NCBI GenBank assembly: GCA_964446685.1
Contig: CAYUPO010000001.1
Location: forward strand, 38,912-102,911
Direction of reading: 5' to 3'
Length of the DNA: 64,000 bases
From: an uncultured Gammaproteobacteria bacterium
GTDB lineage: Bacteria > Patescibacteriota > Microgenomatia > Daviesbacterales > UBA10151
Part shown: piece after piece, positions 7,666 through 61,824 of the stretch
Layout of the letters: every line of letters starts with the position of its first letter
Numbering within the stretch: position 1 is the first letter of the stretch
The notes under the pieces: generated by a model
The model's input: only the letters and a program-made list of their open reading frames with translations
Database searches by the model: none
What the model was told of the DNA's origin: nothing
Program-made: the position numbers and the translations under genes

Positions 7666-8570
7666 CAGAAAAAACATCCGTCTCTATTTGCGTGCCCGCC
7701 TACAATGAAGAAAAAAATATTGAAAAAATATTGCTCGCTCTGTTAGCTCAGAAAACGAATAAAATAGCTATCAATAAAATAGTGGTCGTCTCCTCTGCCA
7801 GTACTGACAAAACAGATGACATTGTAAAAAAATATACTACTGAATATCCGCAGGTAATACTGATCCAGCAGAAAAAAAGAGAAGGCAAAGCTGCAGCTAT
7901 TAATGCCTTTTTAAAAATCACCACTGACCCTTTAATCGTCATCGAAAGCGCTGATACTATTCCCCAGCCAAATACCATCGAACACCTCTGTCTGCCCTTT
8001 TTACGCGACCAGAATATCGGCATGACAGGCGGCGCCCCGATCCCGGTCAATGATCCAAAAACTTTTTTGGGATACATCATCCATACCTGGTGGTGGTTTC
8101 ACCGCAATATCCCCCGTTTTGGAGAGATTATTGCCTGTCGAAACATCATCGAAGCCATCTCCCAAACCACCGCCGTTGATGAAGCCTACATCCAGGCCAA
8201 GATGATCCAGATGAATTTGAAAGCCGTCCATGTCGATGAAGCGATCGTTTTTAACAAAGGTGCAGAAACTGTAAAAGATCTAATTAAACAGCGAAGAAGA
8301 GTTTTTAATGGTCATGCCCGACTTTTAAATAAAGAAAATATTAAAATAGATAATATGACTAAATCAACTTTAAAACTTTTACTTTTTAAATTTCCGATTA
8401 ACAATTTTAAAGAATTAGTATGGTTGGGTTGTGGAATTTTAATTGAGTTATATTCTCAATTGCTAGGTATGTATGATTTGAAAATAAATAAGAAAAATCC
8501 ATTTATTTGGGATACTGCCAAAACAACAAAAAATTTAAAAAAGAAAAGAGCTTATGATTTTATTTCTTAA
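7662..8570 (+). CDS. GT2 family glycosyltransferase (3' ~250 bp compositionally different, possibly mosaic)
   Basis: N-terminal SICVPAYNEEKNIEKILLALLAQ. GAGGAGG Shine-Dalgarno at ~7651-7657. GC drops sharply from ~42% to <25% near 8320. Confidence 0.65.
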   Translation: MTEKTSVSICVPAYNEEKNIEKILLALLAQKTNKIAINKIVVVSSASTDKTDDIVKKYTTEYPQVILIQQKKREGKAAAINAFLKITTDPLIVIESADTIPQPNTIEHLCLPFLRDQNIGMTGGAPIPVNDPKTFLGYIIHTWWWFHRNIPRFGEIIACRNIIEAISQTTAVDEAYIQAKMIQMNLKAVHVDEAIVFNKGAETVKDLIKQRRRVFNGHARLLNKENIKIDNMTKSTLKLLLFKFPINNFKELVWLGCGILIELYSQLLGMYDLKINKKNPFIWDTAKTTKNLKKKRAYDFIS

Positions 8571-8583
8571 TTAACTAAATTAT

Positions 8584-9528
8584 ATGATTTCAATAATTAT
8601 TCCGGTAAAAGGTCATCGTATCATTGATAGATTATTAACTAAACTTTCAGAAATCCCAAAACCAGAAGATACTGAGATATTAGTTATAGATGCAGCAAAA
8701 GGGACCCTTAATGATATTAAAAATAAATTTCCTCTGGTTCGATGGTTATATTATAAATCTAATTATAAACAATCAATATCTGAGCAAAGAAATTTTGGCT
8801 TACTTAAGTCTAAAGGAGATATTATTGTTTTCATTGATGCTGATTGTATTCCGACAAATTCTTGGTTATTAAATTTGATAAACCCAATAAGAAAAGACAA
8901 TGAATCGGTAACCTCCGGTAAAATTATTTCAATGTCTAAGTATCCTTTAAAATGGAAGTTTGATTATGAACTTCTTAAATCAACCCGATACTTACTTTTT
9001 ATTCCAACCATGAATTCTGCATTTTTAAAAAGAGTTTTTAATCAAATTGGAGGATTTGATAATATTTTTAAATATGGAGGTGAAGATGGGGATATTAGCA
9101 TTAGATTACATGAACAAGGATTTAAAATTCGTTATGTACACAATGCAGAAATTTATCATGACTGGGGCGATATAAATAAAAACATCAAGCGAATATTTCT
9201 ATACGGAAGAGCCAACTTTGTTTTAATTTTCAAACACAAATATAAACTTTTTAAATATATAAATTTAATTGAAGTTTCTGCATTTCCCATTTATTTATTT
9301 TTTTTACCAATTACATTATTTTGGCCACTATACTTACTGTTTCTGATTATCCCTTTTTTTAAAGGATTAATTAAAAGTTATTCACTTACTTATGCTCTTG
9401 AGAGTGTTGTTTATGGTTTGTTAATGGGTTCTGGATTTATATTTCAATTTGTTAATTCCTTATTTTTGCCCAAACAAATACAAACTGTTCCTTTAATTAA
9501 AGTATCAAATATTTCACACAAAATATGA
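8584..9528 (+). CDS. GT2 family glycosyltransferase with C-terminal TM helices
   Basis: ISIIIPVKGH... and DxD-like FIDADCIP. C-terminal hydrophobic segments. Very AT-rich coding. Confidence 0.6.
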   Translation: MISIIIPVKGHRIIDRLLTKLSEIPKPEDTEILVIDAAKGTLNDIKNKFPLVRWLYYKSNYKQSISEQRNFGLLKSKGDIIVFIDADCIPTNSWLLNLINPIRKDNESVTSGKIISMSKYPLKWKFDYELLKSTRYLLFIPTMNSAFLKRVFNQIGGFDNIFKYGGEDGDISIRLHEQGFKIRYVHNAEIYHDWGDINKNIKRIFLYGRANFVLIFKHKYKLFKYINLIEVSAFPIYLFFLPITLFWPLYLLFLIIPFFKGLIKSYSLTYALESVVYGLLMGSGFIFQFVNSLFLPKQIQTVPLIKVSNISHKI

Positions 9529-10790
9529 AAAAAATCGTTCTTTTATCCGTTTATGGTGACAAAAATATAGGGGATGCTGCCATATTACAATCCTCACTTA
9601 AAATAATTGATAAATCTATTGATAGACTTTCAGAATTAACTATTTTTTGCGCTGATCCCAAATTCCTAACATTACCCAAATTAAATAGGCTGAAAATAAA
9701 TATCGCTCAAAAACCTTATGGTTATGCTATTCGTCATAAAGGACATTTTTATTCTGAAATATTAAAAATATTTTATTTTATCGAAATCTTCTTTTTTTCA
9801 GGAGTTTATTATGCTTTAGGTAAAATAAATCTAAAATTCTTACCTGATGCAGGATTTTATTCATATATTGGGATTATTCAAAGAGCCGACAGTGTTTTTA
9901 GCATCGGTGGCGGATATCTTAGAACAAAAAGTAAATATAAGGACTATTTCGGTTTATTGCTTACATTACTTCCTATAATTATTGCAAAAAAATTTAAAAA
10001 AAAGATCATATTTTTACCTATGTCATTTGGCAATTTTGCATCAAGTATCCATGCTAAGTTAAGTTTCAATGCAATAAAGGATTCTGTTTTATATATACGA
10101 GACGAAATTAGTCTTAAAACATTGAATAACATGTCTCCTAATTATACTTTAAACATTACTACAAGCCCTGATCTTGCATTATATATGAATTTTGAAGAAG
10201 CAAATTTAGCAAAAAAAATGCGTAGTAAATACATTGTCATGACTGCTAGAGTTTGGTTTAGTAATAGAAAAAAACAGGCATATTACGAAAACTCACTCAA
10301 ACTGTTAATCGAATTTTTATGGGATTCATTTCAAATTAAAACTATTTTTATACCAATGACATGGAATCAGAATGAAGATAATGATGAAGAAGTAGCTATA
10401 AGAATTCAAAAAAAATTATCCAATAGGAAAAGTTTTGAAATACTGAATGCAAAACATCCTTCAGAAGTATTAGAAATCTTAAGTAAAGCTTATTTTTCTG
10501 TTTGTACTCGAATGCATTCCGCGATTCTTTCTTCAGTAGTCAAAACACCATTCATATGTATTGAGTATGAATATAAAACATCAGGATTTCTTAAATTAAT
10601 GAATTTATCAAAGTGGAATATAAATATAAATAATGTAACTTTTGATTTATTAAAAGATAAAGTCTTAAAACTAAAAAAAGAGAAAAATTATTCTAAAATT
10701 CATAAACTGCTAAAAACTAAACATACGCAATTTAAAAAAGAAGAAGACAAACTTATAGAAATGCTTAATAAACAACTGAAAACTATATGA
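9525..10790 (+). CDS. Polysaccharide pyruvyl transferase-like (CsaB/WcaK family) protein
   Basis: N-terminus KKIVLLSVYGDKNIGDAAILQSS matches the PS_pyruv_trans start motif (...G.YG..N.GD.A.L). 421 aa. Start/stop overlaps with neighbours. Confidence 0.45.
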   Translation: MKKIVLLSVYGDKNIGDAAILQSSLKIIDKSIDRLSELTIFCADPKFLTLPKLNRLKINIAQKPYGYAIRHKGHFYSEILKIFYFIEIFFFSGVYYALGKINLKFLPDAGFYSYIGIIQRADSVFSIGGGYLRTKSKYKDYFGLLLTLLPIIIAKKFKKKIIFLPMSFGNFASSIHAKLSFNAIKDSVLYIRDEISLKTLNNMSPNYTLNITTSPDLALYMNFEEANLAKKMRSKYIVMTARVWFSNRKKQAYYENSLKLLIEFLWDSFQIKTIFIPMTWNQNEDNDEEVAIRIQKKLSNRKSFEILNAKHPSEVLEILSKAYFSVCTRMHSAILSSVVKTPFICIEYEYKTSGFLKLMNLSKWNININNVTFDLLKDKVLKLKKEKNYSKIHKLLKTKHTQFKKEEDKLIEMLNKQLKTI

Positions 10791-11599
10791 ATAATCCATT
10801 AGTAACAATAATTATGTCAGCTTATAATGATGAAAAGTATATACATTCTGCGATTGAAAGTATTATTAATCAAACATATAAAAACTGGAAACTGATATTA
10901 ATAAATGACGACTCTTCCGATAACACCGAGGCGGTCATCAAACCTTTTTTAAAAAATACAAATAGGATCAACTACATTAAGAATAAAAAGACTAATGGAT
11001 TAATTACAAACCTCAACTACGCGTTGGATTTGGCAGATGGCAAATACATAGCAAGATTAGATAGTGATGATATCTGGATTGATTCTGAGAAATTAAATGA
11101 TCAAGTAAATTATTTAGAAAATCATAAGGATTACGTTTTGACAGGTACGTGGGGATTTAAAATCTCATCAGATGAAACGCCGAAAGCTCCAATAATGTAT
11201 CCTGTTACTGATAAGAAAATTCATAACTATTTTTTAATTGAGAATTGTTTCATTCATAGTAGTGTGCTTATACGAAAAAGCACATTAGATAAAGTCGGAT
11301 TTTATGATCCTGAATTTCCATCTGCTGAAGATTATGGTCTCTGGGTAAAACTTGGAACGTCTGGGAAATTATATAATTTACCAAAATATATGACAGGTTA
11401 TAGAGTAAATCCTAAGGGTATAAGCTATAATAAATATGCTGAACAAATATCAAGTTCAATAAAAATTGTAAACAAATTTAAAGATTATTACCCTTTTTAT
11501 ACAATTGGTCTATTATTATGGTATGTGCGCAAGTTTTTTCCAAGAGATTTAAGAGAGGCGCTCTCAAGAAATTTTCGTTCACGTTTTGTATCTAAGTAG
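10787..11599 (+). CDS. GT2 family glycosyltransferase
   Basis: VTIIMSAYNDEKYIHSAIESIINQTYKNWKLILINDDSSDNT, a classic GT2 N-terminus with DxD (RLDSDD). Confidence 0.7.
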   Translation: MNNPLVTIIMSAYNDEKYIHSAIESIINQTYKNWKLILINDDSSDNTEAVIKPFLKNTNRINYIKNKKTNGLITNLNYALDLADGKYIARLDSDDIWIDSEKLNDQVNYLENHKDYVLTGTWGFKISSDETPKAPIMYPVTDKKIHNYFLIENCFIHSSVLIRKSTLDKVGFYDPEFPSAEDYGLWVKLGTSGKLYNLPKYMTGYRVNPKGISYNKYAEQISSSIKIVNKFKDYYPFYTIGLLLWYVRKFFPRDLREALSRNFRSRFVSK

Positions 11600-11602
11600 T
11601 AT

Positions 11603-13183
11603 ATGAATATTGTTAATAAATTATTATTAATGGCTAAAAGAAATGAAAATAAGATTATTATTTTAATATTGTTTCTGTTGAGTTTTTTTTCTTTTTTATA
11701 TTATTTTCAAGATTATAAACATCTCCCCTATGCAGATTCCCTTTCTCGATTAAATATAGCAAGGAAAATTGTTGATAATATTAACCCAGGATTGGCCCAA
11801 ATTGGTAATGTATGGTTACCCTTACCTCAACTATTGATGCTCCCCTTTATCTGGAATGATTATTTGTGGCACTCAGGCATAGCTGGTTACATAATGTCTG
11901 GTTCTATGTATATTCTTGGTGGTTACTTTGTATTTAAATCAGCTAAAAGAATCAGTAAATCCAGTATCGGAGCGATATGCAGTTTGGGTATATTTGCATT
12001 AAATATAAATCTCCTTTACCTTCAAACTACTGCAATGTCAGAGTCAATATTTTTGTGCTCCTTAGCTGCAACCATTTACTTTTTTCTACTTTGGTTTGAA
12101 AATAAAAAAACTTCCTATTTGATACTAGCCGCATTATCAGTTAGTGCAATGACATTAATCCGCTATGAGGGACTTGCACTTTTATTACCTTCGATTCCTA
12201 TGGTTTTCATCTATTCATATATACAAGACAGAAAGTATCACAATGCTGAAGGAGTAATCTGGCTATATTCAATGTTAGCATGCTTAGGTTTTAGTTTATG
12301 GACTCTCTACTTAACTGCTATATTTGGTGATCCACTTTATTGGAAAAATTATTATGCAACACCGCAAGCAACAGGTGGGGCAGTTGCTGCATATACTCAA
12401 GCAAAACCATTTATTGCTGCATTATGGCAATATTTTACATCATTTATATGGATGATAGGAATTATACCTACATTATTTGCAGGTTTAGGAACTGTAATCA
12501 TGATAATTATGTCAGTAAAAAAACGTAGCTGGATTTTTATGCCTTTGTTATTACCACTTTCAATTTTTCTTTTCATGGTTCTAACACTTCAACGCAACAC
12601 ACCGATTGTTCAACCAGATTTGACATGGACCAATATACTAAATCCACAAACTAGCCATGGTACTGGATTTAACATCCGTTATGGATTACTTCTACTTCCC
12701 TGGGTAGCAATAATGTCATCATACATTTTCAGATTTAGAATAAGAGCATTAAATGTACTTTTATTTATGCTAATGCTAGTTCAATTCCATACATACTGGT
12801 CACCTGATTATACAGTTATGTATAAAATTCCGGACCGAATAGCTCCTAAACCATATACTAATTTTACAAGTTGGATTCAGAAAAACCATGATGGAGGAAA
12901 AATATTAATAAGTGCGGGTTCTATGGAAGATCAGATGTTTCAAACAGGTTTTAATTACAGTACCTTTATTCATGAAGGAGCGGGTAAATACTGGACTGAA
13001 TCGCTTGATAACCCTTCGAGATATGCAAAATGGGTAGTAATTGATTACGGAAATAATACAGATACTCTTGCCAAAAAAATGAACCGTGTAGATATTTTAG
13101 AGAGAGAATATCAATTAGTTTATGAAGAAAGACAACTAAAAGTATTTAAGAAAATATCGGATCCGTATTTTGTTCTTAAATAA
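11603..13183 (+). CDS. GT-C fold membrane glycosyltransferase (ArnT/PMT-like), paralog 1 (AT-rich copy)
   Basis: About 12 TM helices plus ~100 aa C-terminal soluble domain. First-loop motif YADSLSRLNIARKIVDNINPGLAQIGNVWLPLPQLLMLPFIWNDYLWHSGIAGY is shared with paralogs at 13187 and 18721. Confidence 0.55.
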   Translation: MNIVNKLLLMAKRNENKIIILILFLLSFFSFLYYFQDYKHLPYADSLSRLNIARKIVDNINPGLAQIGNVWLPLPQLLMLPFIWNDYLWHSGIAGYIMSGSMYILGGYFVFKSAKRISKSSIGAICSLGIFALNINLLYLQTTAMSESIFLCSLAATIYFFLLWFENKKTSYLILAALSVSAMTLIRYEGLALLLPSIPMVFIYSYIQDRKYHNAEGVIWLYSMLACLGFSLWTLYLTAIFGDPLYWKNYYATPQATGGAVAAYTQAKPFIAALWQYFTSFIWMIGIIPTLFAGLGTVIMIIMSVKKRSWIFMPLLLPLSIFLFMVLTLQRNTPIVQPDLTWTNILNPQTSHGTGFNIRYGLLLLPWVAIMSSYIFRFRIRALNVLLFMLMLVQFHTYWSPDYTVMYKIPDRIAPKPYTNFTSWIQKNHDGGKILISAGSMEDQMFQTGFNYSTFIHEGAGKYWTESLDNPSRYAKWVVIDYGNNTDTLAKKMNRVDILEREYQLVYEERQLKVFKKISDPYFVLK

Positions 13184-13186
13184 CTT

Positions 13187-14698: not shown

Positions 14699-14726
14699 TA
14701 ACTTTTGTTGTTTGTGGCTCCATCAC

Positions 14727-14863: not shown

Positions 14864-14889
14864 ATAGAAATAATTAATATAAAAGCTTT

Positions 14890-16215: not shown

Positions 16216-16230
16216 CTTTTTTTTAAAAAT

Positions 16231-17799: not shown

Positions 17800-17857
17800 T
17801 TTTATATAGTAATGTTAATGTTTTGCTTTCTTACAACTTTCTGATACGATAACCACG

Positions 17858-18667: not shown

Positions 18668-18720
18668 TACAACTACTCTTGTCATCCAACTTATAGTTAT
18701 ATATACTGCTTTTTTGCATT

Positions 18721-20274: not shown

Positions 20275-20342
20275 ATCCATTCAGCTTGATCTTGTGTGGT
20301 ATATTTAATATTACATTTTTTAACACTAAGGATCCAAAAACA

Positions 20343-32731: not shown

Positions 32732-34036
32732 CTAATCGTCATCATCATCTTCCTGAGCTACATCTTCCATGTCTTTTGGTAAAGCTGGATTAATCAAAAA
32801 TCCTTTGAGATCTTTGCGGCCGACTATCAGAGGATATTTTAGATGACTTCTATCAACAACAGTAGCTGTTGAGACGATCTCTTTGCCGTGTAAAGTAAAT
32901 TTAATTTTTACGGCTGGTCTTGAACCAACCCCACTGGCGGATTTTATCATAATCTGCCTGTCCAAAATTTCTAATCCAAGCTCTTTGACCATTTTATGAT
33001 CCAGTGAAGTCCGGTAAGCGCCAGTATCAAGTTTGGCTAAATAAATCTTAGTTTCGTCCTCTTTCATAAATGTCACCTGCTCTACAGCATCCAAGATAAT
33101 TAATGAGTTTTCCTCTTCTTCGGATTCACTAAACAAAGACCTGGCCAGCTCTATTCCTCTTTCCGCTGATGGAATTGGTAAATTTTCGATTCTCTCAAGC
33201 CTGGTCCGCATTGAAGCCTGATTAGCTATCTGGATCTGTAATCCGGGTCGGGCATTAATTTCCAATACCAAAGGGCCTTTGTTTTTATCTATCACTATAT
33301 CCACACCGGCGTATCCCAGTCCTGAAGCTTCCTGAGCACGGGAAGCCATTAGTAAGATTTTTTCCCACTCTGGTATTCTCATGCCGATGATTGTGGCCAG
33401 CTTTTTTTGACTTTCAGGAGAGGTTGGATTTTTTATTAAAGCATGAAAAGCTTCACCATTTCGTAAATTGAGACCGACTGCAATAGCGCCCATATGAATA
33501 TTGGCTTTGCCTTCAGATTGTTTAGTTGGCAGTCTTAACATCGCCATCACCGGGACTTTATTAAAAACAATCACCCGGATATCAGGCAGACCAACATCAG
33601 TCATTTTCTTGAAAAAAGGATCAGGTCTGATCAACTCCTCAACATAAGCGATATCCGGCAGAGCTTGCAGTGAATAAACGCCATCTAAAACGTCAAAGAT
33701 ATGCGATTCGATATCCGCCCGGGAATATTTTTTGCCGGAAGTTGTAATCCCTTTTCTGCCATCCCAGCTTTCAAAAGCCAGAATTCCTTCACCACCATAC
33801 CCTCTGGATGGTTTGATCACAAAGCCATTTGTCGGTAAAGTCCAGTCAAAATCACGAATACTTTCCGGGGAATTAAAGGTAGTTATCAGCTGACTGGTCG
33901 GGACTTCATGCTTGATTAGCAGTTTTTTGGTCTCGATTTTATCATCCGCTCTTTTTTTAGCGCGGGCTTTGTTAAATTTACGTATATAAATGAAATTTCG
34001 GGCGTTCATCCCGAGAGCGCTGGTACTAATTGCCAT
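32732..34036 (-). CDS. RimK-type ATP-grasp amino-acid ligase fused to C-terminal retropepsin-like (DUF785) aspartyl protease domain
   Basis: ATP-grasp core (FVIKPSRGYGGEGI..., GYAGVDIVIDKNKGPLVLEINARPG). C-terminal ~120 aa with retroviral-type DTG motif (IYLAKLDTGAYRTSLD) and GRKDLKGFLINP. Confidence 0.65.
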   Translation of the reverse strand: MAISTSALGMNARNFIYIRKFNKARAKKRADDKIETKKLLIKHEVPTSQLITTFNSPESIRDFDWTLPTNGFVIKPSRGYGGEGILAFESWDGRKGITTSGKKYSRADIESHIFDVLDGVYSLQALPDIAYVEELIRPDPFFKKMTDVGLPDIRVIVFNKVPVMAMLRLPTKQSEGKANIHMGAIAVGLNLRNGEAFHALIKNPTSPESQKKLATIIGMRIPEWEKILLMASRAQEASGLGYAGVDIVIDKNKGPLVLEINARPGLQIQIANQASMRTRLERIENLPIPSAERGIELARSLFSESEEEENSLIILDAVEQVTFMKEDETKIYLAKLDTGAYRTSLDHKMVKELGLEILDRQIMIKSASGVGSRPAVKIKFTLHGKEIVSTATVVDRSHLKYPLIVGRKDLKGFLINPALPKDMEDVAQEDDDDD

Positions 34037-34955
34037 TGGTTTTTATTGCCTGAAAGCGGAAGTACTCGGTCAATCTGAGACCAAAATATCTTCCGATCAG
34101 TAAGTTGAGCGGGATAAGCAGCAGGATTAATTCAGGATAAAGCAAAACTGCGTCCCGCAGCGGATTGTATTGCAAAATGGCATACCCTAAAAGTCCTATG
34201 CCAACTGTCAGAATGGTGATATTCATAGTTTCGATCAGACTTCTTTGTAACTGTAAAGACACAATTTTGTCTGATAATAAAATGAAGACCAATATTGGGA
34301 AAATCGAGATGTACTGAACGGATAAAATACCCATCCTGGCACTAAATACGAGTGATAAAAAGACCATAATTGAGACCAAAAAGAGTGATAAAGCCATTTT
34401 TGGCAACTGCATGATTCTGACCTGCTTTAAGATAATCCGGGATGTTAATGAAGCAATTAAAATACTAATAATTAATATCGTTCCCGCAGTTAGACCTGTG
34501 GCAATCAAAGAGACAGATAAAATAATTGGTACCAGCATCTCCATACTTGGCAAACCAATCACCAACCTGATAAAAGCGATAATACTGGCTAAAACAGGCA
34601 GTAATAAAATAAGCACTATCGTGTTGGCAGGCACTCCCACAGCTACTGCATACTGTACAGTAAAAGCCATAAAATTTATTGGATTTAGACTGCCTTCGGG
34701 ACGCTGCTGAAACAGTTTTAAGACAGCTTCTTTCTCCTGGGTCTCCTCAGGCTTTGTAATATCATCTTTTTTAAGATCAGCCAAAAGTTGAGCCAAAGAA
34801 GCCGAATCAGTCGCAATGGTGGCAGATTCACTTGCTGAAGCAGTTGCTTCAAGAGAAGGTGATGGTGAAAATCGCAACGGATTTTGTACGGCCTCTACCG
34901 AACCTGGCAAAACAAAAAACAGGCTGAAGGCCAAAATTAATAGGGGGAGTTTCAT
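34026..34955 (-). CDS. Signal-peptide-bearing multi-TM membrane protein translationally coupled to the RimK-retropepsin gene
   Basis: Signal MKLPLLILAFSLFFVLPGSVEA. ~90 aa Ala/Ser/Thr/Glu-rich ectodomain. About 7 TM helices. 11-bp overlap with downstream ATP-grasp start. Confidence 0.5.
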   Translation of the reverse strand: MKLPLLILAFSLFFVLPGSVEAVQNPLRFSPSPSLEATASASESATIATDSASLAQLLADLKKDDITKPEETQEKEAVLKLFQQRPEGSLNPINFMAFTVQYAVAVGVPANTIVLILLLPVLASIIAFIRLVIGLPSMEMLVPIILSVSLIATGLTAGTILIISILIASLTSRIILKQVRIMQLPKMALSLFLVSIMVFLSLVFSARMGILSVQYISIFPILVFILLSDKIVSLQLQRSLIETMNITILTVGIGLLGYAILQYNPLRDAVLLYPELILLLIPLNLLIGRYFGLRLTEYFRFQAIKTNGN

Positions 34956-36372: not shown

Positions 36373-37920
36373 ATGTACAACGATAAACCAAACTATAGCT
36401 CCTCAAGACGCGGAGCATCATCATCAATCAGATCATCTTCCCAACCTTCAAGTGGTGGAGGATATTTTCGTAAACCAGGCGGAACTATGAGAACCACTAG
36501 TGGATCTTATAAAACACGTCCAGCCGGAGAAAATACGAATTCATATAAAACTCCGTCCCAATCATCAGCTAATTCATATTCAAGCAGACCTTCAACCAAT
36601 AGATCAGAAAGTACCGGTAACTCTTACTCAACCAGTCCGAGACCAAGCAGTGGATCTTCTTACCAAAACAGAGGATCAAATGCCGGATACCAAAGATCAT
36701 CTACCGGTTCATATGGCAGACCATCAAATGGATATTCACGTTCATCATCTTATGGCTCAAATAGTGGTGGCTATAATTCCAGACCAAGATTTGCTCCCCG
36801 AAGAGGACCAAAGACTCAGCTGGGTGGAGATGTTTCCATTTTTATTAAAAAGGCCCAGGTTTCAGAAGTAGAAGAAGTTATTCCACATAAAAGCTTTGAT
36901 GAATTTGATATCGCTGCTGCTTTAAAAGAAAATATTGCTCAAAAAGGTTTTACTCATCCAACACCGGTGCAGGATCAGGCAATTGAGCCAATTCTTGAAG
37001 GACGGGATTTAATTGGTTTGGCAAATACCGGAACTGGTAAAACAGGAGCTTTTTTGATACCTATTATCGACCGTATTTTTAAAGACCGTAATCACAAAGC
37101 TTTAATTATTGCTCCAACCAGAGAACTGGCAGTGCAGATCAATGATGAAATGAGATCTCTGGCAGCTGGTATGAAAATTTATTCAGCCCTAGTTATTGGC
37201 GGAGCAAATATGTACAGACAGATTCATGAAATCAGACGTAGTCCGCATGTAGTGATCGGAACCCCAGGAAGACTGAAAGATTTAGTTAAACAAAATGTGC
37301 TTCATTTGGAAGATTTTTCTATTATAGTCCTGGATGAAGTTGATCTGATGGTTGATATTGGATTTATCGAAGATGTTAAATACTTTATCTCAATGCTACC
37401 AAAGGAAAGACAGTCACTTTTCTTCTCAGCCACAATCTCACCCAAGATCAGAACTATTTTAGAAGCTTTTGTGAAAGATGCAGTGACTGTTTCTATTAAG
37501 AAACAAGTTTCTTCCGAAAATATTGAGCAAGATATCATCAGGGTCATCAATCCGGCTAAAAAAGTGGATCAGTTGCATGAGCTGCTGATCAAAGATGGCT
37601 TTGATAAAGTGTTAGTCTTTGGCAGAACAAAACATGGTGTTGAAAAGTTACAACAGGAGCTGACAACCAGAGGATTTAGAGTAGGTGCTATTCATGGAAA
37701 TAAATCACAGGGTCACAGACAACGAGTTTTACAAAGCTTTAAAAGAAACGAACTTCAGATATTACTTGCAACAGATGTAGCATCCAGAGGAATTGATATT
37801 GATAATGTTTCACATGTGATTAATTACGAATTACCTGAAACTTATGAAGACTATATTCACCGGATTGGAAGAACCGGACGAGCCGGAAAAACCGGATCTG
37901 CATTTACTTTCATCGGTTAA
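36373..37920 (+). CDS. DEAD-box ATP-dependent RNA helicase with ~150-aa N-terminal Ser/Tyr/Gly/Arg/Asn-rich low-complexity domain
   Basis: Q-motif GFTHPTPVQ, motif I ANTGTGKT, Ia PTRELA, II DEVD, III SAT, VI HRIGRTGR. N-terminus ...NSYKTPSQSSANSYSSRPSTNRSESTGNSYSTSPRPSSGSSYQNRGSNAGYQRSSTGSYGRPSNGYSRSSSYGSNSGGYNSRPRFAPRRG. Confidence 0.85.
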   Translation: MYNDKPNYSSSRRGASSSIRSSSQPSSGGGYFRKPGGTMRTTSGSYKTRPAGENTNSYKTPSQSSANSYSSRPSTNRSESTGNSYSTSPRPSSGSSYQNRGSNAGYQRSSTGSYGRPSNGYSRSSSYGSNSGGYNSRPRFAPRRGPKTQLGGDVSIFIKKAQVSEVEEVIPHKSFDEFDIAAALKENIAQKGFTHPTPVQDQAIEPILEGRDLIGLANTGTGKTGAFLIPIIDRIFKDRNHKALIIAPTRELAVQINDEMRSLAAGMKIYSALVIGGANMYRQIHEIRRSPHVVIGTPGRLKDLVKQNVLHLEDFSIIVLDEVDLMVDIGFIEDVKYFISMLPKERQSLFFSATISPKIRTILEAFVKDAVTVSIKKQVSSENIEQDIIRVINPAKKVDQLHELLIKDGFDKVLVFGRTKHGVEKLQQELTTRGFRVGAIHGNKSQGHRQRVLQSFKRNELQILLATDVASRGIDIDNVSHVINYELPETYEDYIHRIGRTGRAGKTGSAFTFIG

Positions 37921-37978
37921 AGAAAATCCCAGGCAATCTGTCTCCGTCTGACAAATCACCCAGGATATTTTCTTTTCC

Positions 37979-38507: not shown

Positions 38508-39572
38508 TTAAAATTGAGTGGGCTTCGGCAGATAGATAGTAAAAGTAGTGCCTTTATTTTCAGTAGATTTTACCTCAATTTTTCCTTCATTTGAGACAAT
38601 AATTTTTTTAGCAATTGAAAGCCCTAAACCAAAACCTTTGGAATTATTTTTATTCCGTGAAGTATCACTCCGGTAAAATCTATTGAATATAAGCGGTAGC
38701 TCTTTTTTTGGAATACCAATCCCCTGGTCTGAAACAGCAATAAAAATCATTCCATCTTTTTTCCCACTATTTAAGCTGATTGTAGTATTTTTTTCAGAAT
38801 ACTTAATGGCGTTATCAAGTAAAATTACCAGACAATCAGTTAAAGATTTAAAATTACCCTGCAAAATCTCATTACCAGTTTTATTTTCTATTACAATATG
38901 TTTGTCTTTGGCTAAGGGTATAACTTTCTTTAAGGCTGCAATCGTTAAATCAACAGCTTTTATACTTTCTAAAGCAGAGTGATTTTTTTGTTCATGATTT
39001 TGTGAAAGTGTTAATAACGATTCTGATAGATGCACTAAAGAATTTACTTCTTCAAGATTTGATTGCAATAATTTTTTTGAATCATTTAGTGATAAATTTT
39101 TGTCCCTTAAATTAACTTCTAGTTCTGTTTTTAAAGCGGTTAAAGGTGTTTTTAACTCATGAGAAGCATCTGAGATAAACTGATTTTGCTGTTTGACCAT
39201 TTCATCAATAGGTCTTAATGTTCTTCCGGCCAGAAAATATCCAAGTGTTCCAGAAGAAAATAAAATACCCAGATTTAGTAAAAGCAGTGTTAGTCTAATT
39301 CTTCTTTTTGACTCTTCAATAAAAGATCCCTCAGCCAGTCGTCTTTCCAATTCATTTCGGATTTCATCAGGTAACTCTGTAACAAAAGGGTCTCTTAATT
39401 TATTTTCCAGTCGTCTTTGTTGCTGTTGGTCAAACCGGTTTAGCTCATTGGTTGCAATCTCATATATCCCAACTGAAAAAGCAGCACTGATAATCAGTAT
39501 CAGCATGACGTACCAGGCAGTTAACTTAACTCTCGCAATTTGAAAAACAGACGAAGGAAAACGAATATTCAT
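38508..39572 (-). CDS. Sensor histidine kinase (HisKA + HATPase_c) with two TM helices
   Basis: H-box ISDASHELKTPLTALK. G-boxes GFGLGLSIAKKII. N-terminal TM pair flanking a short periplasmic loop. Confidence 0.8.
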   Translation of the reverse strand: MNIRFPSSVFQIARVKLTAWYVMLILIISAAFSVGIYEIATNELNRFDQQQQRRLENKLRDPFVTELPDEIRNELERRLAEGSFIEESKRRIRLTLLLLNLGILFSSGTLGYFLAGRTLRPIDEMVKQQNQFISDASHELKTPLTALKTELEVNLRDKNLSLNDSKKLLQSNLEEVNSLVHLSESLLTLSQNHEQKNHSALESIKAVDLTIAALKKVIPLAKDKHIVIENKTGNEILQGNFKSLTDCLVILLDNAIKYSEKNTTISLNSGKKDGMIFIAVSDQGIGIPKKELPLIFNRFYRSDTSRNKNNSKGFGLGLSIAKKIIVSNEGKIEVKSTENKGTTFTIYLPKPTQF

Positions 39573-40252
39573 TAGCGTTTTTCCCCAAGTTTATAACCAA
39601 AACCTCTAATTGTATGAATTAAAGGCGCCTGGTTGATAAAGGATTTATCAATTTTTTGTCTGAGATAACCAATATATACTTCAACTGTATTAGGCAAAAC
39701 ATCAGCATCATAATCCCAGACATGCTGAATTATCTGATCTTTAGATAAAATTTGGTTAGGATGGCGAATCATATATTCGAGAAGTGCAAATTCTTTTTGA
39801 GATAACTGGATAGTTCTTTGATCTCTTTTTACTTCAAATGTTTTCGTGTTTAAAGACAGATCATTTAAACTTAAGTTATCATTTAGAACATCTTTGGGAC
39901 GGCGACTTAAAGCTCGGACCCTGGCCAAAAGTTCCTCAAAAGCAAAAGGTTTTGGCAAATAATCATCTGCCCCGGCATCAAAACCAGCTATTTTATCTTC
40001 GAGCATGCCTTTGGCTGTTAACATCAGTATTGGAGTAAATTTTTTAGCTTCCCGTAATTTACGGCAGATCTCAAACCCATCCATTTTAGGTAACATCACA
40101 TCTAAAATTAAAACATCGTAATCCTCTGTAGATGCTAAATTGTACCCATCCTCTCCGTCATGGGAGATATCCACTACAAACTTTTCCTGCTCCAACCCTT
40201 TTTTCAAAGAAGCGGCGATTTTGTACTCATCTTCCACAATTAATAATTTCAT
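39572..40252 (-). CDS. OmpR-family response regulator (REC + winged-helix)
   Basis: MKLLIVEDE...DVLILDVMLPKMDGFEICRKLR receiver. C-terminal wHTH ...GYLRQKID...TIRGFGYKL. Confidence 0.85.
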   Translation of the reverse strand: MKLLIVEDEYKIAASLKKGLEQEKFVVDISHDGEDGYNLASTEDYDVLILDVMLPKMDGFEICRKLREAKKFTPILMLTAKGMLEDKIAGFDAGADDYLPKPFAFEELLARVRALSRRPKDVLNDNLSLNDLSLNTKTFEVKRDQRTIQLSQKEFALLEYMIRHPNQILSKDQIIQHVWDYDADVLPNTVEVYIGYLRQKIDKSFINQAPLIHTIRGFGYKLGEKR

Positions 40253-40297: not shown

Positions 40298-41812
40298 TTA
40301 AAAACCGGGGAAATAATCTGTTTTAATTTGCAGTTTTGGAACCCCTAAATCAGCCAATGTTTTTTCAAAAGCAGCCACCATTCCGTGTGGACCCGAGATA
40401 TAAAAAGTTCGGTCTTTAAAATCCGGAACATATTTTTGGATCTTTTCAGCAGTTAAAAAACCTCTGTCTCCTGTCCAATCAACAGGTAGTTGGGATTCAT
40501 CACTTAAAGAATAAATTGTTTTTAACCCGATTTCATTTGCAGCCTGAGAAAAAATATTTTGATAAGCTATCTCCTCTTTGGTTTTATTTGAATAAAACAA
40601 AACGATATCTCTTTTTTGTTTAATGTCAATTAAATATTTGATCATACTTCTAAAAGGCGTCACACCAATCCCACCTGCAATAAATACCAGTTTTTTAGAT
40701 GCATCTTCAGGTAATGTAAAATCTCCTGCCAGATTACCTATAGAAATATTTTTTCCGGGAGTAAGTTCTGATAAAGCTTTTTTAAACTCACTTGGATTCG
40801 GATAAAATTTTACTCCCAATTCAATATCCATTTCGGTTGGGGATGAGGCAATTGTAAAATAACGTCTGTTGCCACGGGAATCATAATGTTTCTGTGGTAA
40901 TGTCCATTCAATATATTGACCAGGTAAAAATGATAACTGCCTGTTTGGTGAAAAAATAAATCCAAAAGTATCTTTTGCCAGATCTATTTTTTGTTTAAAA
41001 GTGGCTACCCTTTTACTAAAAGGAGAAATAAAGAAGCTAAATAAATTACCCATAATTAAAGCTGATTCAGGAGTGGTATACCAAGATCCAATATGGACTT
41101 GCGGATTATATAAAATACCAACTAAGAGGCCATAGAATATTCTCGGCCATTTTCTGGCAGGAGTTGTAAAAGGCTCAGTTAACATCACTGTCGCCAGAAA
41201 TATTAAGGGAGTATTAATTAAAGTTCTTTGAAATAATGAGAATAAATCAGCTCCTTTAAAAAATCCCCCGATTAAAATACTACCCATTGCCGCAGCACCA
41301 AAAGCAATTATCAGATCAGGTCTGCGGATTTTTCTAACGATCAAAAAGCCACCTATTAAAACAGGAAAGAAAAACCATTTACTACCCACCCACCAGTTAG
41401 CAGACTGACCCAAAAAAGTTGAAGTCATTAGAACTGAGATTGCCACCGGATTGAACAGATGTTTTTTATCTATTGCCAATATAAACTTAGAAGCACTAAT
41501 CCAGATAGCAGCCCAGGCCAGGAAACCGAGGTCTTGAAAGGAACCAAGAGGGGGAATTATTAAAGTTAAAATAAGTGATGAAATATAGATAGATTCTGAA
41601 TTAGTAGTTGATTCAAAAAAATGTCCAAAAATGGTATTTGTCAGCCAGGCAACAGTGGTCAAAAGTACGGCAGTAAAAATAATCATCGGGCCGTTAAAAG
41701 GCAAAATACCTACAAAAGATAAGATAACTGCTTCAACCAATAAAAGTATTAAAAAGTACAGCACTAGCCTGTACATTGTTATTGAATTTAAAAAATTATC
41801 GATAAAATTCAT
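40298..41812 (-). CDS. Polytopic membrane protein with C-terminal ferredoxin-NADP reductase-like FAD/NAD(P)-binding domain
   Basis: About 8 N-terminal TM helices. C-terminal RRYFTIASSP (RxYS FAD motif) and FIAGGIGVTPFRSM (NAD motif). Start refined to ATG M11 (track start is TTG at 41842). Confidence 0.6.
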   Translation of the reverse strand: MNFIDNFLNSITMYRLVLYFLILLLVEAVILSFVGILPFNGPMIIFTAVLLTTVAWLTNTIFGHFFESTTNSESIYISSLILTLIIPPLGSFQDLGFLAWAAIWISASKFILAIDKKHLFNPVAISVLMTSTFLGQSANWWVGSKWFFFPVLIGGFLIVRKIRRPDLIIAFGAAAMGSILIGGFFKGADLFSLFQRTLINTPLIFLATVMLTEPFTTPARKWPRIFYGLLVGILYNPQVHIGSWYTTPESALIMGNLFSFFISPFSKRVATFKQKIDLAKDTFGFIFSPNRQLSFLPGQYIEWTLPQKHYDSRGNRRYFTIASSPTEMDIELGVKFYPNPSEFKKALSELTPGKNISIGNLAGDFTLPEDASKKLVFIAGGIGVTPFRSMIKYLIDIKQKRDIVLFYSNKTKEEIAYQNIFSQAANEIGLKTIYSLSDESQLPVDWTGDRGFLTAEKIQKYVPDFKDRTFYISGPHGMVAAFEKTLADLGVPKLQIKTDYFPGF

Positions 41813-41819
41813 ATTATTC

Positions 41820-42563
41820 CTATTGGACGACAAATCTAGCAAATCCTGTGGTCATGGTCGCAATTTTATTATACCCAATCATATATCCTTCACACATTGG
41901 CAGTTTTTCGATAAAATTAATTCCTTCTTCACCCATGGCAAAAGCAGCTGTGGCAAAACGGTCTGCTTCATAGATATTGGGGGCAATCACAGTCAGACTG
42001 GCAATTTCATTGGCAGATTGTTTTGAAATTGGATTATATATATGTGTTCCCCTTTCGTATGTGCCTGATGTTGCTACTCCTTCTGTTTCAACTTCGATTA
42101 CTTTTATTATTTCTAACGGACTGAAAGGGTTTTTGATTCCAACTTTCCAGGTCTTATTTTGACTATTTCTGCCGGACACCTGTATATCACCTCCAGCTGC
42201 TATATAAAAATTCTTGACTCCGAGTTTCTTTAATTTTATAGCAGCTTCATTTATTGCCCAGCCTTTAACTATGCCTGATGGATCAATTAATTTAATTATT
42301 GGATTAAATGAATCAAAAAAACCATTTGTATCCATCTTTGTTTGATCTGCCAAATCTAGAATTAATTTCATTTCCGGACTAAAGTTATTTTTTTTTATTT
42401 CCCCTTTATTTATCTGACTTATCTCACTATTTTTTTTGTAAGTACTAAACTTCTGATCAATTTTTCGGAAATAATTAAAAACTTTCTTAATTTTATTTTG
42501 ATCATTATCTCCTGGAATCTCCACAATAATGGGCATCCCCATAATTTGTTGTGTTTGCTTCAT
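41820..42563 (-). CDS. apbE: ApbE family FAD:protein FMN transferase (flavin transferase)
   Basis: GMPIIVEI, FSTYKKNSEISQIN, FFDSFNPIIKLIDPSGIVKGWAINEAA, IAAGGDIQVSG, WKVGIKNPF, VATSGTYERGTHIYNP, SLTVIAPNIYEADRFATAAF are all ApbE hallmarks. Start refined to ATG (MKQTQQ). Confidence 0.8.
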   Translation of the reverse strand: MKQTQQIMGMPIIVEIPGDNDQNKIKKVFNYFRKIDQKFSTYKKNSEISQINKGEIKKNNFSPEMKLILDLADQTKMDTNGFFDSFNPIIKLIDPSGIVKGWAINEAAIKLKKLGVKNFYIAAGGDIQVSGRNSQNKTWKVGIKNPFSPLEIIKVIEVETEGVATSGTYERGTHIYNPISKQSANEIASLTVIAPNIYEADRFATAAFAMGEEGINFIEKLPMCEGYMIGYNKIATMTTGFARFVVQ

Positions 42564-42564
42564 A

Positions 42565-42984
42565 TTAACTGGCCTGGGAAAGTGCTGATTTGAGTGATTC
42601 GATGAAAGCTTTACTAGTTTGGGTAGCACCAGCCACTATATCCACCTGATAGGTTTGAGCTTGCAACGCTTCCTGTATCAGATGAGGCATCGCCTGGGTA
42701 TTAATTCTTTCTGAAGTTCTCCGATCTGTTGGATATTCCAGAAACCTAACTTCACTAATTTTTCCATTCTTTATTGTTGCTTCAACCTGAACATTTCCAT
42801 AATAAGCATCAATACTTTTTCCCTTATAGATTCCAGTTTTGTATGCTTTTTCCGGTTCAGATTGGACTTCTGATATTTTGGGGGCTTTTACGACACCGTT
42901 ATCTTCTTCACCTTCCATTTTCTGAAGATAGACATAGCCAATAAATGCTGAAATGACTACCAAGGATAATATCCACTTTTTCAT
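42565..42984 (-). CDS. Membrane-anchored FMN-binding domain protein (predicted ApbE flavinylation substrate)
   Basis: N-terminal TM (WILSLVVISAFIGYVYL). C-terminal FMN_bind-like domain ending ...YQVDIVAGATQTSKAFIESLKSA (D-x-x-GAT-x-T flavinylation motif). Start refined to ATG M19. Confidence 0.6.
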   Translation of the reverse strand: MKKWILSLVVISAFIGYVYLQKMEGEEDNGVVKAPKISEVQSEPEKAYKTGIYKGKSIDAYYGNVQVEATIKNGKISEVRFLEYPTDRRTSERINTQAMPHLIQEALQAQTYQVDIVAGATQTSKAFIESLKSALSQAS

Positions 42985-43027: not shown

Positions 43028-43642
43028 TTAGTAGCCAACCGGAGTTTTGATGATAATCATCTGTATACGGGAAGGGTTTGGCTCCTTATTAAAAATTAGC
43101 AACTTACTGACAAAGCTACCCTCAACTCCATAAGCTTTTTTGGCGCGGTCTGATTCTAAAGGGAGTGTATGTTCGTAAATCCGTTTCATACCCTGGTCCA
43201 GATCTTTGACTATTTTTTGTGAACCGACAACCCAAATAATGTGAGGCGAACCATACGCATAACTTGGCAGATTGCTGCCTGAATTTGAAGCTATTATGAC
43301 TTTTCCATCTTCTGTGACAGCATGAACACTGCCTAAGGCCCATTCTGGACCGGCTCCCAGCTTTTGCATTTCAAGACCTTCCGTTTGACGACTCATCTGC
43401 ATTAGCTTTGGTTTTGTCGCATTATATTTGCCTGATTCATTAATTTCCTGGCTGATTCCTGATTCTTCCAAAGTTACTGAAGTATTCGTATGAACTTCAC
43501 TCCCCTGAGGAATAATATTTAATACTTTGGCTTTTGCTTCAGCCAACGATGGAACAACAAACGCGGTTATTCCATTTTGTTTGAGGGATATAATTGTCTT
43601 TTCAATTGCTGCATCACTGGCTGAGGTATTCCATCTGTCCAT
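43028..43642 (-). CDS. LUD (LutC-like) domain protein, tentative
   Basis: 204 aa soluble protein. General resemblance to DUF162/LutC. Weak assignment. Confidence 0.3.
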   Translation of the reverse strand: MDRWNTSASDAAIEKTIISLKQNGITAFVVPSLAEAKAKVLNIIPQGSEVHTNTSVTLEESGISQEINESGKYNATKPKLMQMSRQTEGLEMQKLGAGPEWALGSVHAVTEDGKVIIASNSGSNLPSYAYGSPHIIWVVGSQKIVKDLDQGMKRIYEHTLPLESDRAKKAYGVEGSFVSKLLIFNKEPNPSRIQMIIIKTPVGY

Positions 43643-43708
43643 ATGCTTTATTATAGCTATTTACTTTATTTTAGGAAGTAGTTACCTTTTTTGAAGTAAA
43701 AACTTTCT

Positions 43709-60127: not shown

Positions 60128-60544
60128 TTATCGGCAGTCTTTGCAGTAACCAAAAAATTCTAGTGAGTGATTGATAACTTTAAAATTATTTTGTTTTAAA
60201 AAACGGGCTTCTTCCTTTTCTAAATCTGTTTTTAGCTCAATATCTTCAACTTTGCGACAGTTTAAACAAATTAAATGATGATGATGTTTAAAATCTTCCA
60301 ATTCATATCTTTTCTGTCCTTCACCAAATTCAATCTCTTTAATAATATTCTCAGAAAGCAAAAATGTTAATTCCCGATAAATAGTTGTCTTGTTTACTCT
60401 TATTTCTTGGGTATGAAAAGATTCAATCAGATCGTTGGCAGATAATGGAACTTTTGAATCTATAAATCTTTCAACTATACCCAACCTGATCTTGGTAATT
60501 TTAAATCCTTTATCTCTTAATGTAGAAATGATCTGATTATCCAT
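60128..60544 (-). CDS. Fur-family metalloregulator (Fur/Zur/PerR)
   Basis: DNA-binding N-terminus. HHHHLICLNCRKVEDIE and C-terminal CKDC metal sites. Confidence 0.75.
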   Translation of the reverse strand: MDNQIISTLRDKGFKITKIRLGIVERFIDSKVPLSANDLIESFHTQEIRVNKTTIYRELTFLLSENIIKEIEFGEGQKRYELEDFKHHHHLICLNCRKVEDIELKTDLEKEEARFLKQNNFKVINHSLEFFGYCKDCR

Positions 60545-61289
60545 TATATTTATCTCCTTTTTCCCATTTTGCAGCAGTTAAAAAGGGCGCATAAATATCA
60601 TCCTCCAAAGATATTTTCATCTCCTCAATTTCCTCCTCTGAAGGGTTATTATCGACAAATTTCACAAATGGCAAATCTTCGATAATTGTTAATGGCTGCT
60701 GTTCCTGGCCTTCACCCATAAGTAAAGTTGCAGCAGCAGCTAAATTTTCGGCGATATTAACTTTTGTCATCACCAGTGCTCTACCAAAAATATCTTCTGT
60801 CCCTATCAGATCATGCAATGCTTTAAACCCGCTGTGTCCGATTGAGGTACCTGTTACTCCCCATTTGAGAGGCATCGTTTTACTATCTGTGATGATGACA
60901 CCAAGATTTTTAATATTAAATTTTTTTCTTAAGAAATCTCTAATTTTATTTGCACTATCATAAGAATTTTTAGGCCACAACACATAAAAACCATTACCAT
61001 TTGATTCATCTATCCCGGCACTGGCTGTCAGTAAATTATCCGTCACAGTCAAAGCAACATGGTATTTGTTTTTATCCCGGGGGATGAAATACTGTGATTC
61101 CTGTCTGATTAACTGATCTTTATCAGTTTCTTCTACTTTGACAACCCTGCCTTCACAAATTGCAACAATTTTAGAAGTTACAGCCACGATACTGCCTTCA
61201 TCCAAAGAAGTAATATATTTATCAATCACATCCAAAATATTTTTATCTGCAGTTGTGATTTTATGAGTTTTGATGGCACTAATTTTCAT
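60537..61289 (-). CDS. CofE-like (F420-0:gamma-glutamyl ligase family, PF01996) protein
   Basis: IVAVTSKIVAICEGR, SAGIDESN, LGVIITDSKTMPLKWGVTGTSIGHSGF, DIFGRALVMTKVNIAENLAAAATLLMGEG align motif-by-motif with archaeal CofE. Start taken at internal ATG (MKISAIK) to avoid 35-bp overlap. Confidence 0.6.
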   Translation of the reverse strand: MKISAIKTHKITTADKNILDVIDKYITSLDEGSIVAVTSKIVAICEGRVVKVEETDKDQLIRQESQYFIPRDKNKYHVALTVTDNLLTASAGIDESNGNGFYVLWPKNSYDSANKIRDFLRKKFNIKNLGVIITDSKTMPLKWGVTGTSIGHSGFKALHDLIGTEDIFGRALVMTKVNIAENLAAAATLLMGEGQEQQPLTIIEDLPFVKFVDNNPSEEEIEEMKISLEDDIYAPFLTAAKWEKGDKYNG

Positions 61290-61293
61290 TTTG

Positions 61294-61824
61294 TTAAATA
61301 AAATCGTATCTATAAAGTTGCGTACCAATGCTGTTCAAAGTAACTGGATATCCTAATTTTATTTGTTTTGGTTTTTGATCCCATGCTTCTAATTTTAACC
61401 CCTCTCCTAGTTTAACAGGTTCGACAGTTAATTGGGCTGAGGTCAACTTGTTTCCAAGAAGTAGATCGTTTGCCGGTCTACCGCTCACTACAACAATTTT
61501 TTCTTTTCCTTTTCCTACTAAATAATCAACTGCCTCATCCGCACTCATATTTGCAAATTCTAATTGCCCATCAACCTTATATTGCTGAAATCTTTCTGGA
61601 AAATGTGTTAAACCTAGTCTCAATAAATCTGGTCTAAGACCTTTTAAAATCCTCTCAATATTATCTCTAGCAGTATCAGCACCCATTAATGTGGCATCGG
61701 CTTCATCAAGCATTTTTTTGAATTCTCTTTGGTCTTCAACTGATGTTTTAAATCCTCCTTGGAGAGGTTTATAGAATCCATCCTTAGATACAGCAAAACA
61801 TAATATAACGTCAGGTTTTTTCAT
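61294..61824 (-). CDS. RibD C-terminal-domain-like (DHFR-fold) reductase
   Basis: VILCFAVSKDGFY...SVEDQREFKKMLDEADATLMGADT fits PF01872. Confidence 0.55.
   Translation of the reverse strand: MKKPDVILCFAVSKDGFYKPLQGGFKTSVEDQREFKKMLDEADATLMGADTARDNIERILKGLRPDLLRLGLTHFPERFQQYKVDGQLEFANMSADEAVDYLVGKGKEKIVVVSGRPANDLLLGNKLTSAQLTVEPVKLGEGLKLEAWDQKPKQIKLGYPVTLNSIGTQLYRYDFI

Follow-up and report, generated by a model that had tools for sequence, protein, structure and literature searches.

We analysed a 64,000-nucleotide stretch of DNA from an uncultured bacterium of the Patescibacteriota (candidate phyla radiation, CPR), namely positions 38,912 to 102,911 of contig CAYUPO010000001.1 in assembly GCA_964446685.1 (hereafter, the window). 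Our subject is a group of three adjacent genes that encode a protein with an FMN_bind domain, an ApbE flavin transferase, and a membrane reductase in which an NqrB/RnfD-like membrane domain is fused to a domain binding flavin adenine dinucleotide (FAD) and NAD(P)H. The genes and their main features are as follows.

42565..42984, minus strand: FMN_bind gene, 139 amino acids (ATG at 42984, stop at 42565)
42622..42642, minus strand: flavinylation motif D115-I-V-A-G-A-T121; the codon of T121, the predicted acceptor of flavin mononucleotide (FMN), is at 42624..42622
41820..42563, minus strand: ApbE gene, 247 amino acids (ATG at 42563, 1 base past the TAA of the FMN_bind gene)
40298..41812, minus strand: membrane reductase gene, 504 amino acids (ATG at 41812, 7 bases past the TAG of the ApbE gene)
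41018..41812, minus strand: NqrB/RnfD-like membrane domain, residues 1-265, 10 helices in the AlphaFold2 model
40298..41011, minus strand: FNR-type FAD/NAD(P)H domain, residues 268-504, predicted to be cytosolic

Gene starts were fixed by reading the DNA and by aligning relatives, in which these starts are conserved; the membrane reductase, for example, opens with MNFIDNFLNxITMYRLVLY, an N-terminus shared by its relatives. The resulting lengths of 139, 247 and 504 amino acids are also those of independent annotations of the trio. Open reading frames (ORFs) and Pfam matches bear out the original prediction of three co-oriented minus-strand genes; the matches lie far beyond chance, and the three-gene module is real. 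The genes had also been described as overlapping, which arises only with the longest ORFs: with the starts conserved in homologues the spacing is tight and without overlap, leaving gaps of 1 and 7 bases. For comparison, a scan of species-representative genomes yielded at least 480 relatives (species-level genomes), and 80 loci were kept for analysis.

The membrane domain of the 504-residue fusion protein had been thought to have about eight transmembrane helices and not to match NqrB or RnfD in any obvious way. Both statements had to be revised. Residues 137-274 match the Pfam family PF03116 (NQR2_RnfD_RnfE; E=8.7e-6, 25.7 bits), and a family profile built from the first 275 residues of 22 diverse relatives, run against the PDB, recovers RnfD of Azotobacter vinelandii (8ahx_D, E=2.5e-7) and, in two colinear stretches, NqrB of Vibrio cholerae (7xk3_B, E=5e-3). 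AlphaFold2 modelled the full-length fusion protein with a pLDDT of 91.3 and a pTM of 0.83; the fold search with this model was swamped by matches to the FNR domain, and the membrane domain was therefore modelled separately (pLDDT 88.7). When this second model was compared with the PDB using Foldseek, the best 15 matches were all RnfD or NqrB chains (probability 1.00, TM-score 0.56-0.71), and the next in rank were urea transporters (E>0.3), which are known distant relatives of NqrB/RnfD (PMC12174285). Pfam match, profile and predicted fold all identify the membrane domain as an NqrB/RnfD homologue, with 10 helices in the model.

This homologue appears to have lost the covalent flavin site of its relatives. 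In the profile alignment, the counterpart of NqrB residues 210-281, which we take to hold the flavinylated T236, has shrunk to ~23 residues, and the loop at the position of the flavinylated threonine of NqrB/RnfD reads G-Q-S-A-N-W-W (family consensus Q-S-A-S-W-W). A motif search of the membrane domain found no acceptor motif for a covalent FMN of the NqrB/RnfD type, and 110 of 116 relatives lack any [ST]GA[ST]-type motif. SGAS or TGAT is retained in exactly this outward loop by two rare members (P0064, at position 136, and P0070, at position 139), which may be intermediates between a self-flavinylated RnfD and the form that depends on a partner. The fusion protein has no cysteine and so cannot carry iron-sulfur clusters. 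Its conserved histidines are the invariant H118 and the nearly invariant H240, with no others, and in the predicted topology these two lie on opposite faces of the membrane. A bis-His haem site was rejected on the grounds that there is no conserved histidine pair, in agreement with the original prediction, which had noted that the haem pattern was missing.

The C-terminal reductase domain matches NAD_binding_1 (PF00175, E=1.4e-15) and FAD_binding_6 (PF00970, E=1.8e-4), and its closest solved relatives are the FAD/NADH domains of NqrF. It carries the motifs R-Y-F-T-I-A-S-S-P, A-G-G-I-G-V-T-P-F and S-G-P, and a C-terminal F-P-G-F. The nucleotide-binding motif GGIGVTP had been read correctly; the FAD motif, given earlier as RxYS, is R-x-F-T. 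An analogy to cytochrome b5 reductase hints at a possible preference for NADH over NADPH; we write NAD(P)H for either. Averaged over 116 family members, lysines and arginines number 12.8 in the loops predicted to be cytosolic vs 2.4 in the outside loops, and the segment directly preceding the reductase domain has 4.3 on its own. Because positive residues concentrate on the inside, these counts place the reductase domain in the cytosol and turn the loop equivalent to the flavin site of NqrB outward.

The FMN_bind protein resembles the NqrC/RnfG subunits. It matches PF04205 over nearly the whole profile (E=3.7e-10, profile positions 2-77 of 77) and consists of an N-terminal MKK followed by a transmembrane helix that would act as a signal anchor, a linker of ~30 residues, and the C-terminal FMN-binding domain. 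Its N-terminus reads MKKWILSLVVISAFIGYVYLQ and continues into an acidic stretch. An N-in signal anchor of the same kind is found in the FMN_bind protein of every homologous cluster, and five of the six actinobacterial members have a lipobox (L-A-G-C, V-T-G-C); these features indicate that the domain is extracytosolic. Together with the lysine and arginine counts, the anchor pattern agrees with the topology that had been anticipated, with the FMN_bind domain outside and the FNR domain inside. Among solved structures its closest relative is 8p2a, the crystal structure of a flavinylated FMN-binding domain (E=1.1e-10), and the motif D-I-V-A-G-A-T aligns residue by residue with D-A-V-S-G-A-T of 8p2a and D-V-H-S-G-A-T of 8p2b. 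T121 is the predicted acceptor since it falls on the flavinylated threonine of 8p2a, as the earlier choice of motif required.

The ApbE protein of the cluster looks functional, judging from its sequence. It matches PF02424 (E=1.7e-43) and aligns with ApbE of V. cholerae (6nxi, E=4e-16) such that T-H-I-Y-N-P falls on S-H-I-I-D-P, with histidine paired with histidine; we take this residue, which at the same position is a glycine in 6nxj, to be the catalytic His257. The motifs ATSG and A-D are also conserved with respect to 6nxi.

Taken together, these results are best explained by an outward, flavin-only electron transfer from NAD(P)H to FAD, to a flavin in the RnfD-like domain, to a covalent FMN on T121, and on to an outside acceptor, a reading to which we assign a probability of about 0.65. 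NAD(P)H would be oxidised by the cytosolic FAD-binding FNR-type domain that is fused to the 10-helix NqrB/RnfD-like domain. By analogy with NqrB/RnfD, electrons would then cross the membrane via a non-covalent flavin at the riboflavin position and reach the FMN bound covalently to T121 of the membrane-anchored FMN_bind subunit, which would dock where NqrB/RnfD would hold its own covalent FMN. In RnfD and NqrB themselves, FMN lies towards the outside of the membrane and riboflavin towards the inside, ~8 Å apart (PMC12174285). The outward-facing FMN, attached by ApbE, would reduce an extracytosolic acceptor, possibly metal ions, to which metal-related neighbouring genes in other lineages (VIT1, NRAMP, Cu P-type ATPase) point. 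We infer here which cofactors the membrane domain holds, which way electrons flow, what accepts them and where flavinylation occurs. The overall logic of the original prediction, from NAD(P)H via FAD and the membrane domain to a covalently flavinylated outside protein, is upheld by the threonine alignment, the positive-inside counts and the FMN_bind anchor.

The novelty that had been implied for this arrangement does not hold. The architecture has been published as the "NQR/RNF-like system", with CPR named as a main host group (PMC8238504; PMC10979944), and the locus is a further member of this class and not a new type of system. Méheust et al. (2021, eLife 10:e66878, PMC8238504) define the system as a fusion of PF03116 and PF00175 within a flavinylation gene cluster, which requires ApbE and/or FMN_bind no more than five genes away and an export signal on one or more of them. 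In the window, the fusion is present (with PF03116 below its gathering score, confirmed by the RnfD profile at E=2.5e-7 and by the fold), and ApbE and FMN_bind lie immediately upstream, the latter with the MKK and transmembrane anchor as read from the pattern. Huang et al. (2024, mSystems 9:e00375-24, PMC10979944) present an AlphaFold-multimer model of the Ktedonobacter racemifer complex; there, the flavinylation site of NqrB/RnfD is described as not conserved, and the FMN site of the partner nears the vacant flavin pocket. The flavinylated threonine is likewise not conserved in the window member (loop QSANWW, no [ST]GA[ST]). The window system thus shares with the published one the fusion of an NqrB/RnfD-like domain to an NqrF-like NAD-binding domain, the absence of other NQR/RNF subunits, the loss of the NqrB/RnfD threonine and the presence among the CPR, which are among the main hosts. 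Nothing essential differs; what sets the window member apart is the sub-threshold PF03116, the alanine at position 4 of the flavinylation motif and an ApbE without export signal. With its sub-threshold score, the window member could escape the published operational definition. For 47 of the 120 nearest homologues no PF03116 hit is recorded, and the published count of the family is therefore probably too low: the family is much larger than the 127 clusters first reported, with at least 480 species-level genomes and many members below the defining Pfam threshold. To this family, the locus adds a well-resolved CPR example with corrected gene starts, a recurring two-component system adjoining the trio, and a dedicated ApbE without export signal.

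Several observations weigh against outward transfer through a flavinylated partner. The PF03116 score of the fusion protein (25.7 bits) is below the Pfam gathering score of 27.7. ApbE substrates follow the consensus D-x-x-[S/T]-G-A-[S/T], with the acceptor serine or threonine last (PMC12052999), and the window motif has alanine at position 4 where the consensus has serine or threonine, with D, G, A and the acceptor T all kept. The nearest relative has DIVSGAT; the change from serine to alanine is specific to the lineage of the window, and a sequencing error is ruled out by the occurrence of the AGAT form in three independent assemblies. We did not find an acceptor gene conserved across the family in the 83 loci, nor an experimental or biochemical study of the NQR/RNF-like class in the literature. 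The ApbE is leaderless and its target lies outside, so the usual flavinylation outside the membrane does not fit.

The window ApbE opens at its first conserved strand (MKQTQQIMGMP), and no hydrophobic stretch is possible in frame upstream. When stop-to-stop ORFs of 65 related clusters were inspected, ApbE started at MKxTRxxMGMPxTVE or xFEAIGT, and in ~60 of the 65 an upstream hydrophobic segment in frame was again impossible. The 120 nearest ApbE homologues are all 237-261 amino acids long, and none is a fusion. The N-terminal lipoprotein or Sec signal of a typical extracytosolic ApbE is therefore missing from the cluster ApbE. Typical ApbE proteins are exported lipoproteins, and cytosolic ones are known solely for cytosolic substrates (PMC12052999). 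In the text consulted, neither Méheust et al. (2021) nor Huang et al. (2024) takes up the missing signal.

Flavinylation of the motif, which lies near the C-terminus, before Sec export of the FMN_bind protein is one possible way out; ApbE accepts tags of 7 residues (PMC12052999). Alternatively, another part of the genome may encode a second ApbE that is exported (within the window, family profiles detect each of the three genes only once), or the cluster ApbE may have a different role. Two further solutions were considered and set aside. Recoding that would fuse FMN_bind to ApbE by read-through or frameshifting is contradicted by a frame relation that varies between loci and by the lack of fusions among the 120 ApbE homologues. 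Tat export of a pre-flavinylated FMN_bind protein fails as a general answer, the N-terminal regions having mostly K-K and not R-R. A more ambitious version, which we regard as rather unlikely, combines these elements: a cytosolic ApbE would flavinylate the C-terminal motif of FMN_bind before Sec export, or load the RnfD-like domain from the inside, and the two-subunit complex would form a quinone-independent, NAD(P)H-driven outward path, possibly ion-coupled, that serves as a main redox outlet of fermentative CPR.

The system could instead be a minimal NAD(P)H:quinone reductase, which would move electrons out of the FNR domain and across the NqrB-like domain to a quinone in the membrane, much as Na+-NQR does in its final steps; FMN_bind would then be no more than an intermediate or accessory carrier. 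Chemistry that faced the cytosol would make a leaderless ApbE easier to account for. Members of the family are also known from groups that contain quinones, such as Mesorhizobium, Actinobacteria and Ktedonobacteria. In NQR the ubiquinone site is held by NqrB; however, its pocket is made by two extra N-terminal amphipathic helices that are absent from RnfD (PMC12174285), and the window protein has only 12 residues ahead of its first helix. Moreover, all lineages export the FMN_bind partner, which in Actinobacteria has lipoboxes. We found no nqr, rnf, ndh or quinone-synthesis genes among the ~45 window ORFs scanned, and CPR genomes, to our knowledge, generally lack quinone synthesis. We consider a quinone reductase improbable.

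The same low weight goes to an ion-coupled version, which is an extension compatible with outward flavin-based transfer and not opposed to it. Here, the proposed cation path of NqrB/RnfD would have been kept and outward transfer would be coupled to, or charge-balanced by, movement of Na+ or H+, so that two subunits would suffice for redox-driven ion translocation. The subunit proposed to conduct ions is RnfD/NqrB, in which F338 and F342 act as gate residues (PMC12174285). In an alignment read by eye, the invariant F205 of the window protein falls on F338 and the invariant E213 (T-E-P) on the aspartate of T-D-P in NqrB, but F342 is replaced by valine. Coupling in NQR and RNF is presumed to be driven by NqrD/E or RnfA/E, which hold a 2Fe-2S cluster, and by the swinging NqrC/RnfG; these partners are either missing here or differ in arrangement, and the ion-translocation site is itself debated in NQR and RNF (PMC12174285).

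Both subunits are homologous to NQR/RNF subunits, yet the idea that the trio is a remnant of, or accessory to, a standard nqr/rnf operon with its other subunits elsewhere is hardly credible: the cluster lies 40 kb into the window between LUD, methyltransferase, response regulator and histidine kinase genes, its three ORFs are intact, the fusion protein is 51-86% identical to 115 relatives, and the trio stands alone in ~65 loci, some of them on contigs of ~0.8-1 Mb that belong to small-genome lineages. Genes for NqrD/E (RnfA/E), NqrA (RnfC) and NqrF (RnfB) were found neither among the scanned window ORFs nor in the Pfam tables of syntenic relatives, and the possibility raised with the original prediction, that the module is a fragment of a larger operon, finds no support among these ORFs and loci.

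Outward transfer through the flavinylated partner, which we prefer, can be set beside better-known systems. With Na+-NQR (NqrABCDEF) and RNF (RnfABCDGE), the window system has in common a subunit of the NqrB/RnfD fold (TM-score 0.56-0.71), an NADH-oxidising FAD domain of the NqrF type and an FMN_bind subunit that is, here by prediction, flavinylated by ApbE. Those complexes have six subunits, whereas the window system has two, without NqrD/E or RnfA/E, without iron-sulfur clusters, without a covalent FMN site on the NqrB-like domain and without the N-terminal helices of the quinone site. Electron flow is semicircular in NQR and RNF, in contrast to the one-way outward flow predicted here. In extracellular electron transfer of the Listeria type (Ndh2, DmkA/B, EetA/B, FmnA, FmnB, PplA), electrons from NADH end, as predicted for the window system, on an extracytosolic FMN_bind protein flavinylated by an enzyme of the ApbE family (FmnB), and both systems are found in organisms expected to have a single membrane. 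In the scanned ORFs of the window, however, homologues of ApbE/FmnB and FMN_bind are the only representatives of this pathway, with no Ndh2, quinone, EetA/B or FmnA, and the membrane step would be taken by the RnfD-like/FNR fusion; FmnB is a lipoprotein, unlike the window ApbE, which has no signal peptide. According to a 2025 survey, 54% of CPR genomes have FmnB/ApbE without other genes for extracellular electron transfer (PMC12153355), and clusters like the window trio are a likely explanation for FmnB in CPR genomes that have no other genes of the Listeria-type pathway. NOX, FRE and MsrQ-like proteins are also fusions, in which electrons move outward from a cytosolic NAD(P)H/FAD domain via the attached membrane domain, but that membrane domain is a six-helix ferric reductase domain with bis-His di-haem, while the window domain has the RnfD/NqrB fold; the Pfam scan of the fusion protein gave no match to a ferric reductase domain.

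CPR are regarded as having no respiratory chain. If their electrons could travel from NAD(P)H to the cell surface without quinones, these bacteria would have a means of regenerating oxidised NAD(P), of reducing metals that they take up or of exchanging electrons with hosts. Two parts deserve further study: the leaderless ApbE and the possible ion coupling via the NqrB-like domain.

The 80 loci kept for analysis come from many CPR lineages and from Chloroflexota (Dictyobacter, Ktedonospora), Alphaproteobacteria (Mesorhizobium, Kaistia), Spirochaetota and Actinobacteria. Of 83 loci, ~65 show the genes in the order FMN_bind, ApbE, RnfD-FNR, and they span five phyla (CPR, Chloroflexota, Alphaproteobacteria, Spirochaetota, Actinobacteria). 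The genes that neighbour the trio vary: an OmpR-type regulator with a histidine kinase occurs in 20-24 of the 83 loci, a MacB-type ABC system with an HlyD-like adaptor in 11-20, a Cu P-type ATPase in five, VIT1 in four, NRAMP in three and MsrA/MsrB in three. In the window, the trio is surrounded by the following features.

43695..43668, minus strand: promoter-like site from a consensus scan
43028..43642, minus strand: LUD-domain protein, 204 amino acids (PF02589, E=5.8e-20), co-oriented, 43 nucleotides upstream of the trio
39572..40252, minus strand: OmpR-family response regulator (PF00072 and PF00486), co-oriented, 45 nucleotides downstream of the trio
38508..39572, minus strand: histidine kinase, 354 amino acids (PF00512 and PF02518), with two transmembrane helices and a charged outer loop of ~55 residues
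37979..38455, minus strand: secreted protein, 158 amino acids, all-helical and highly charged, directly after the histidine kinase
37926..37966, minus strand: terminator-like hairpin from a consensus scan, with a 17-bp stem and a T run, past the last co-oriented gene

The response regulator probably belongs to the transcription unit of the trio. Orthologues of the kinase (330-354 amino acids, with a short sensor, an N-terminal R-[IV]-K-L-T-x-x-Y helix and then G-R-T-L-[RK]-P-I) adjoin the trio together with an OmpR-type regulator in four CPR loci (L003, L008, L010, L061) and three of Spirochaetota (L051, L066, L073). The Mesorhizobium loci have another kinase, of ~447 amino acids with a large sensor domain, and a small PepSY-like protein. 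The co-oriented block, shared by the window and its close relatives, comprises the LUD gene, FMN_bind, ApbE, RnfD-FNR, the response regulator, the histidine kinase and the 158-residue secreted protein. The promoter-like site and the hairpin would bound this seven-gene unit, which we offer as a suggestion, such sites being no more numerous than in shuffled sequence. The LUD gene was rejected as a component of the system, because it adjoins the trio solely in the clade of the window (6 of 83 loci). The 158-residue protein is conserved only in the nearest relatives and has no significant Pfam match; its L-T-P-E-Q-R recalls the LTxxQ of CpxP/Spy-like proteins, an identity that we did not retain for lack of Pfam support.

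A few kb from the trio, a 7TM_transglut protein and a "sugar-transfer associated" ATP-grasp protein are encoded as a pair (32732..34955, minus strand). The pair recurs near the trio in relatives (L083, 16866..19089; L086, 14556..16788), and the ATP-grasp gene alone is found in a more distant one (L001, 10415..12049). Between this pair and the trio, a DEAD-box helicase (36373..37920, plus strand) has a low-complexity N-terminal region, ~150 residues long and rich in Ser, Gly, Arg and Tyr, its Pfam domains having been read from a syntenic relative.

Elsewhere in the window, a 577-residue protein (554..2287, minus strand) fuses a DsbD-type transmembrane domain to AhpC/TSA-Redoxin and Thioredoxin_10 domains, and thus provides, within the same 64 kb, another way of moving reducing power across the membrane, in this case by thiols. 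Beside it are genes for a fasciclin-domain protein (2474..3091) and a MarR regulator (3425..3886). At the other end, a Fur-family regulator (60128..60544) overlaps a gene resembling the F420-0:gamma-glutamyl ligase (60537..61328, PF01996), followed by an ORF of 176 amino acids without Pfam match, all on the minus strand (60128..61824). The CofE-like ligase is unexpected, the organism not being known to make F420. Finally, the G+C content falls to 28-29% at 8001..12000 vs ~36-40% elsewhere in the window. This segment lies within a run of plus-strand ORFs (4144-21440), the first of which encodes a family 2 glycosyltransferase, and may be a variable or acquired island.

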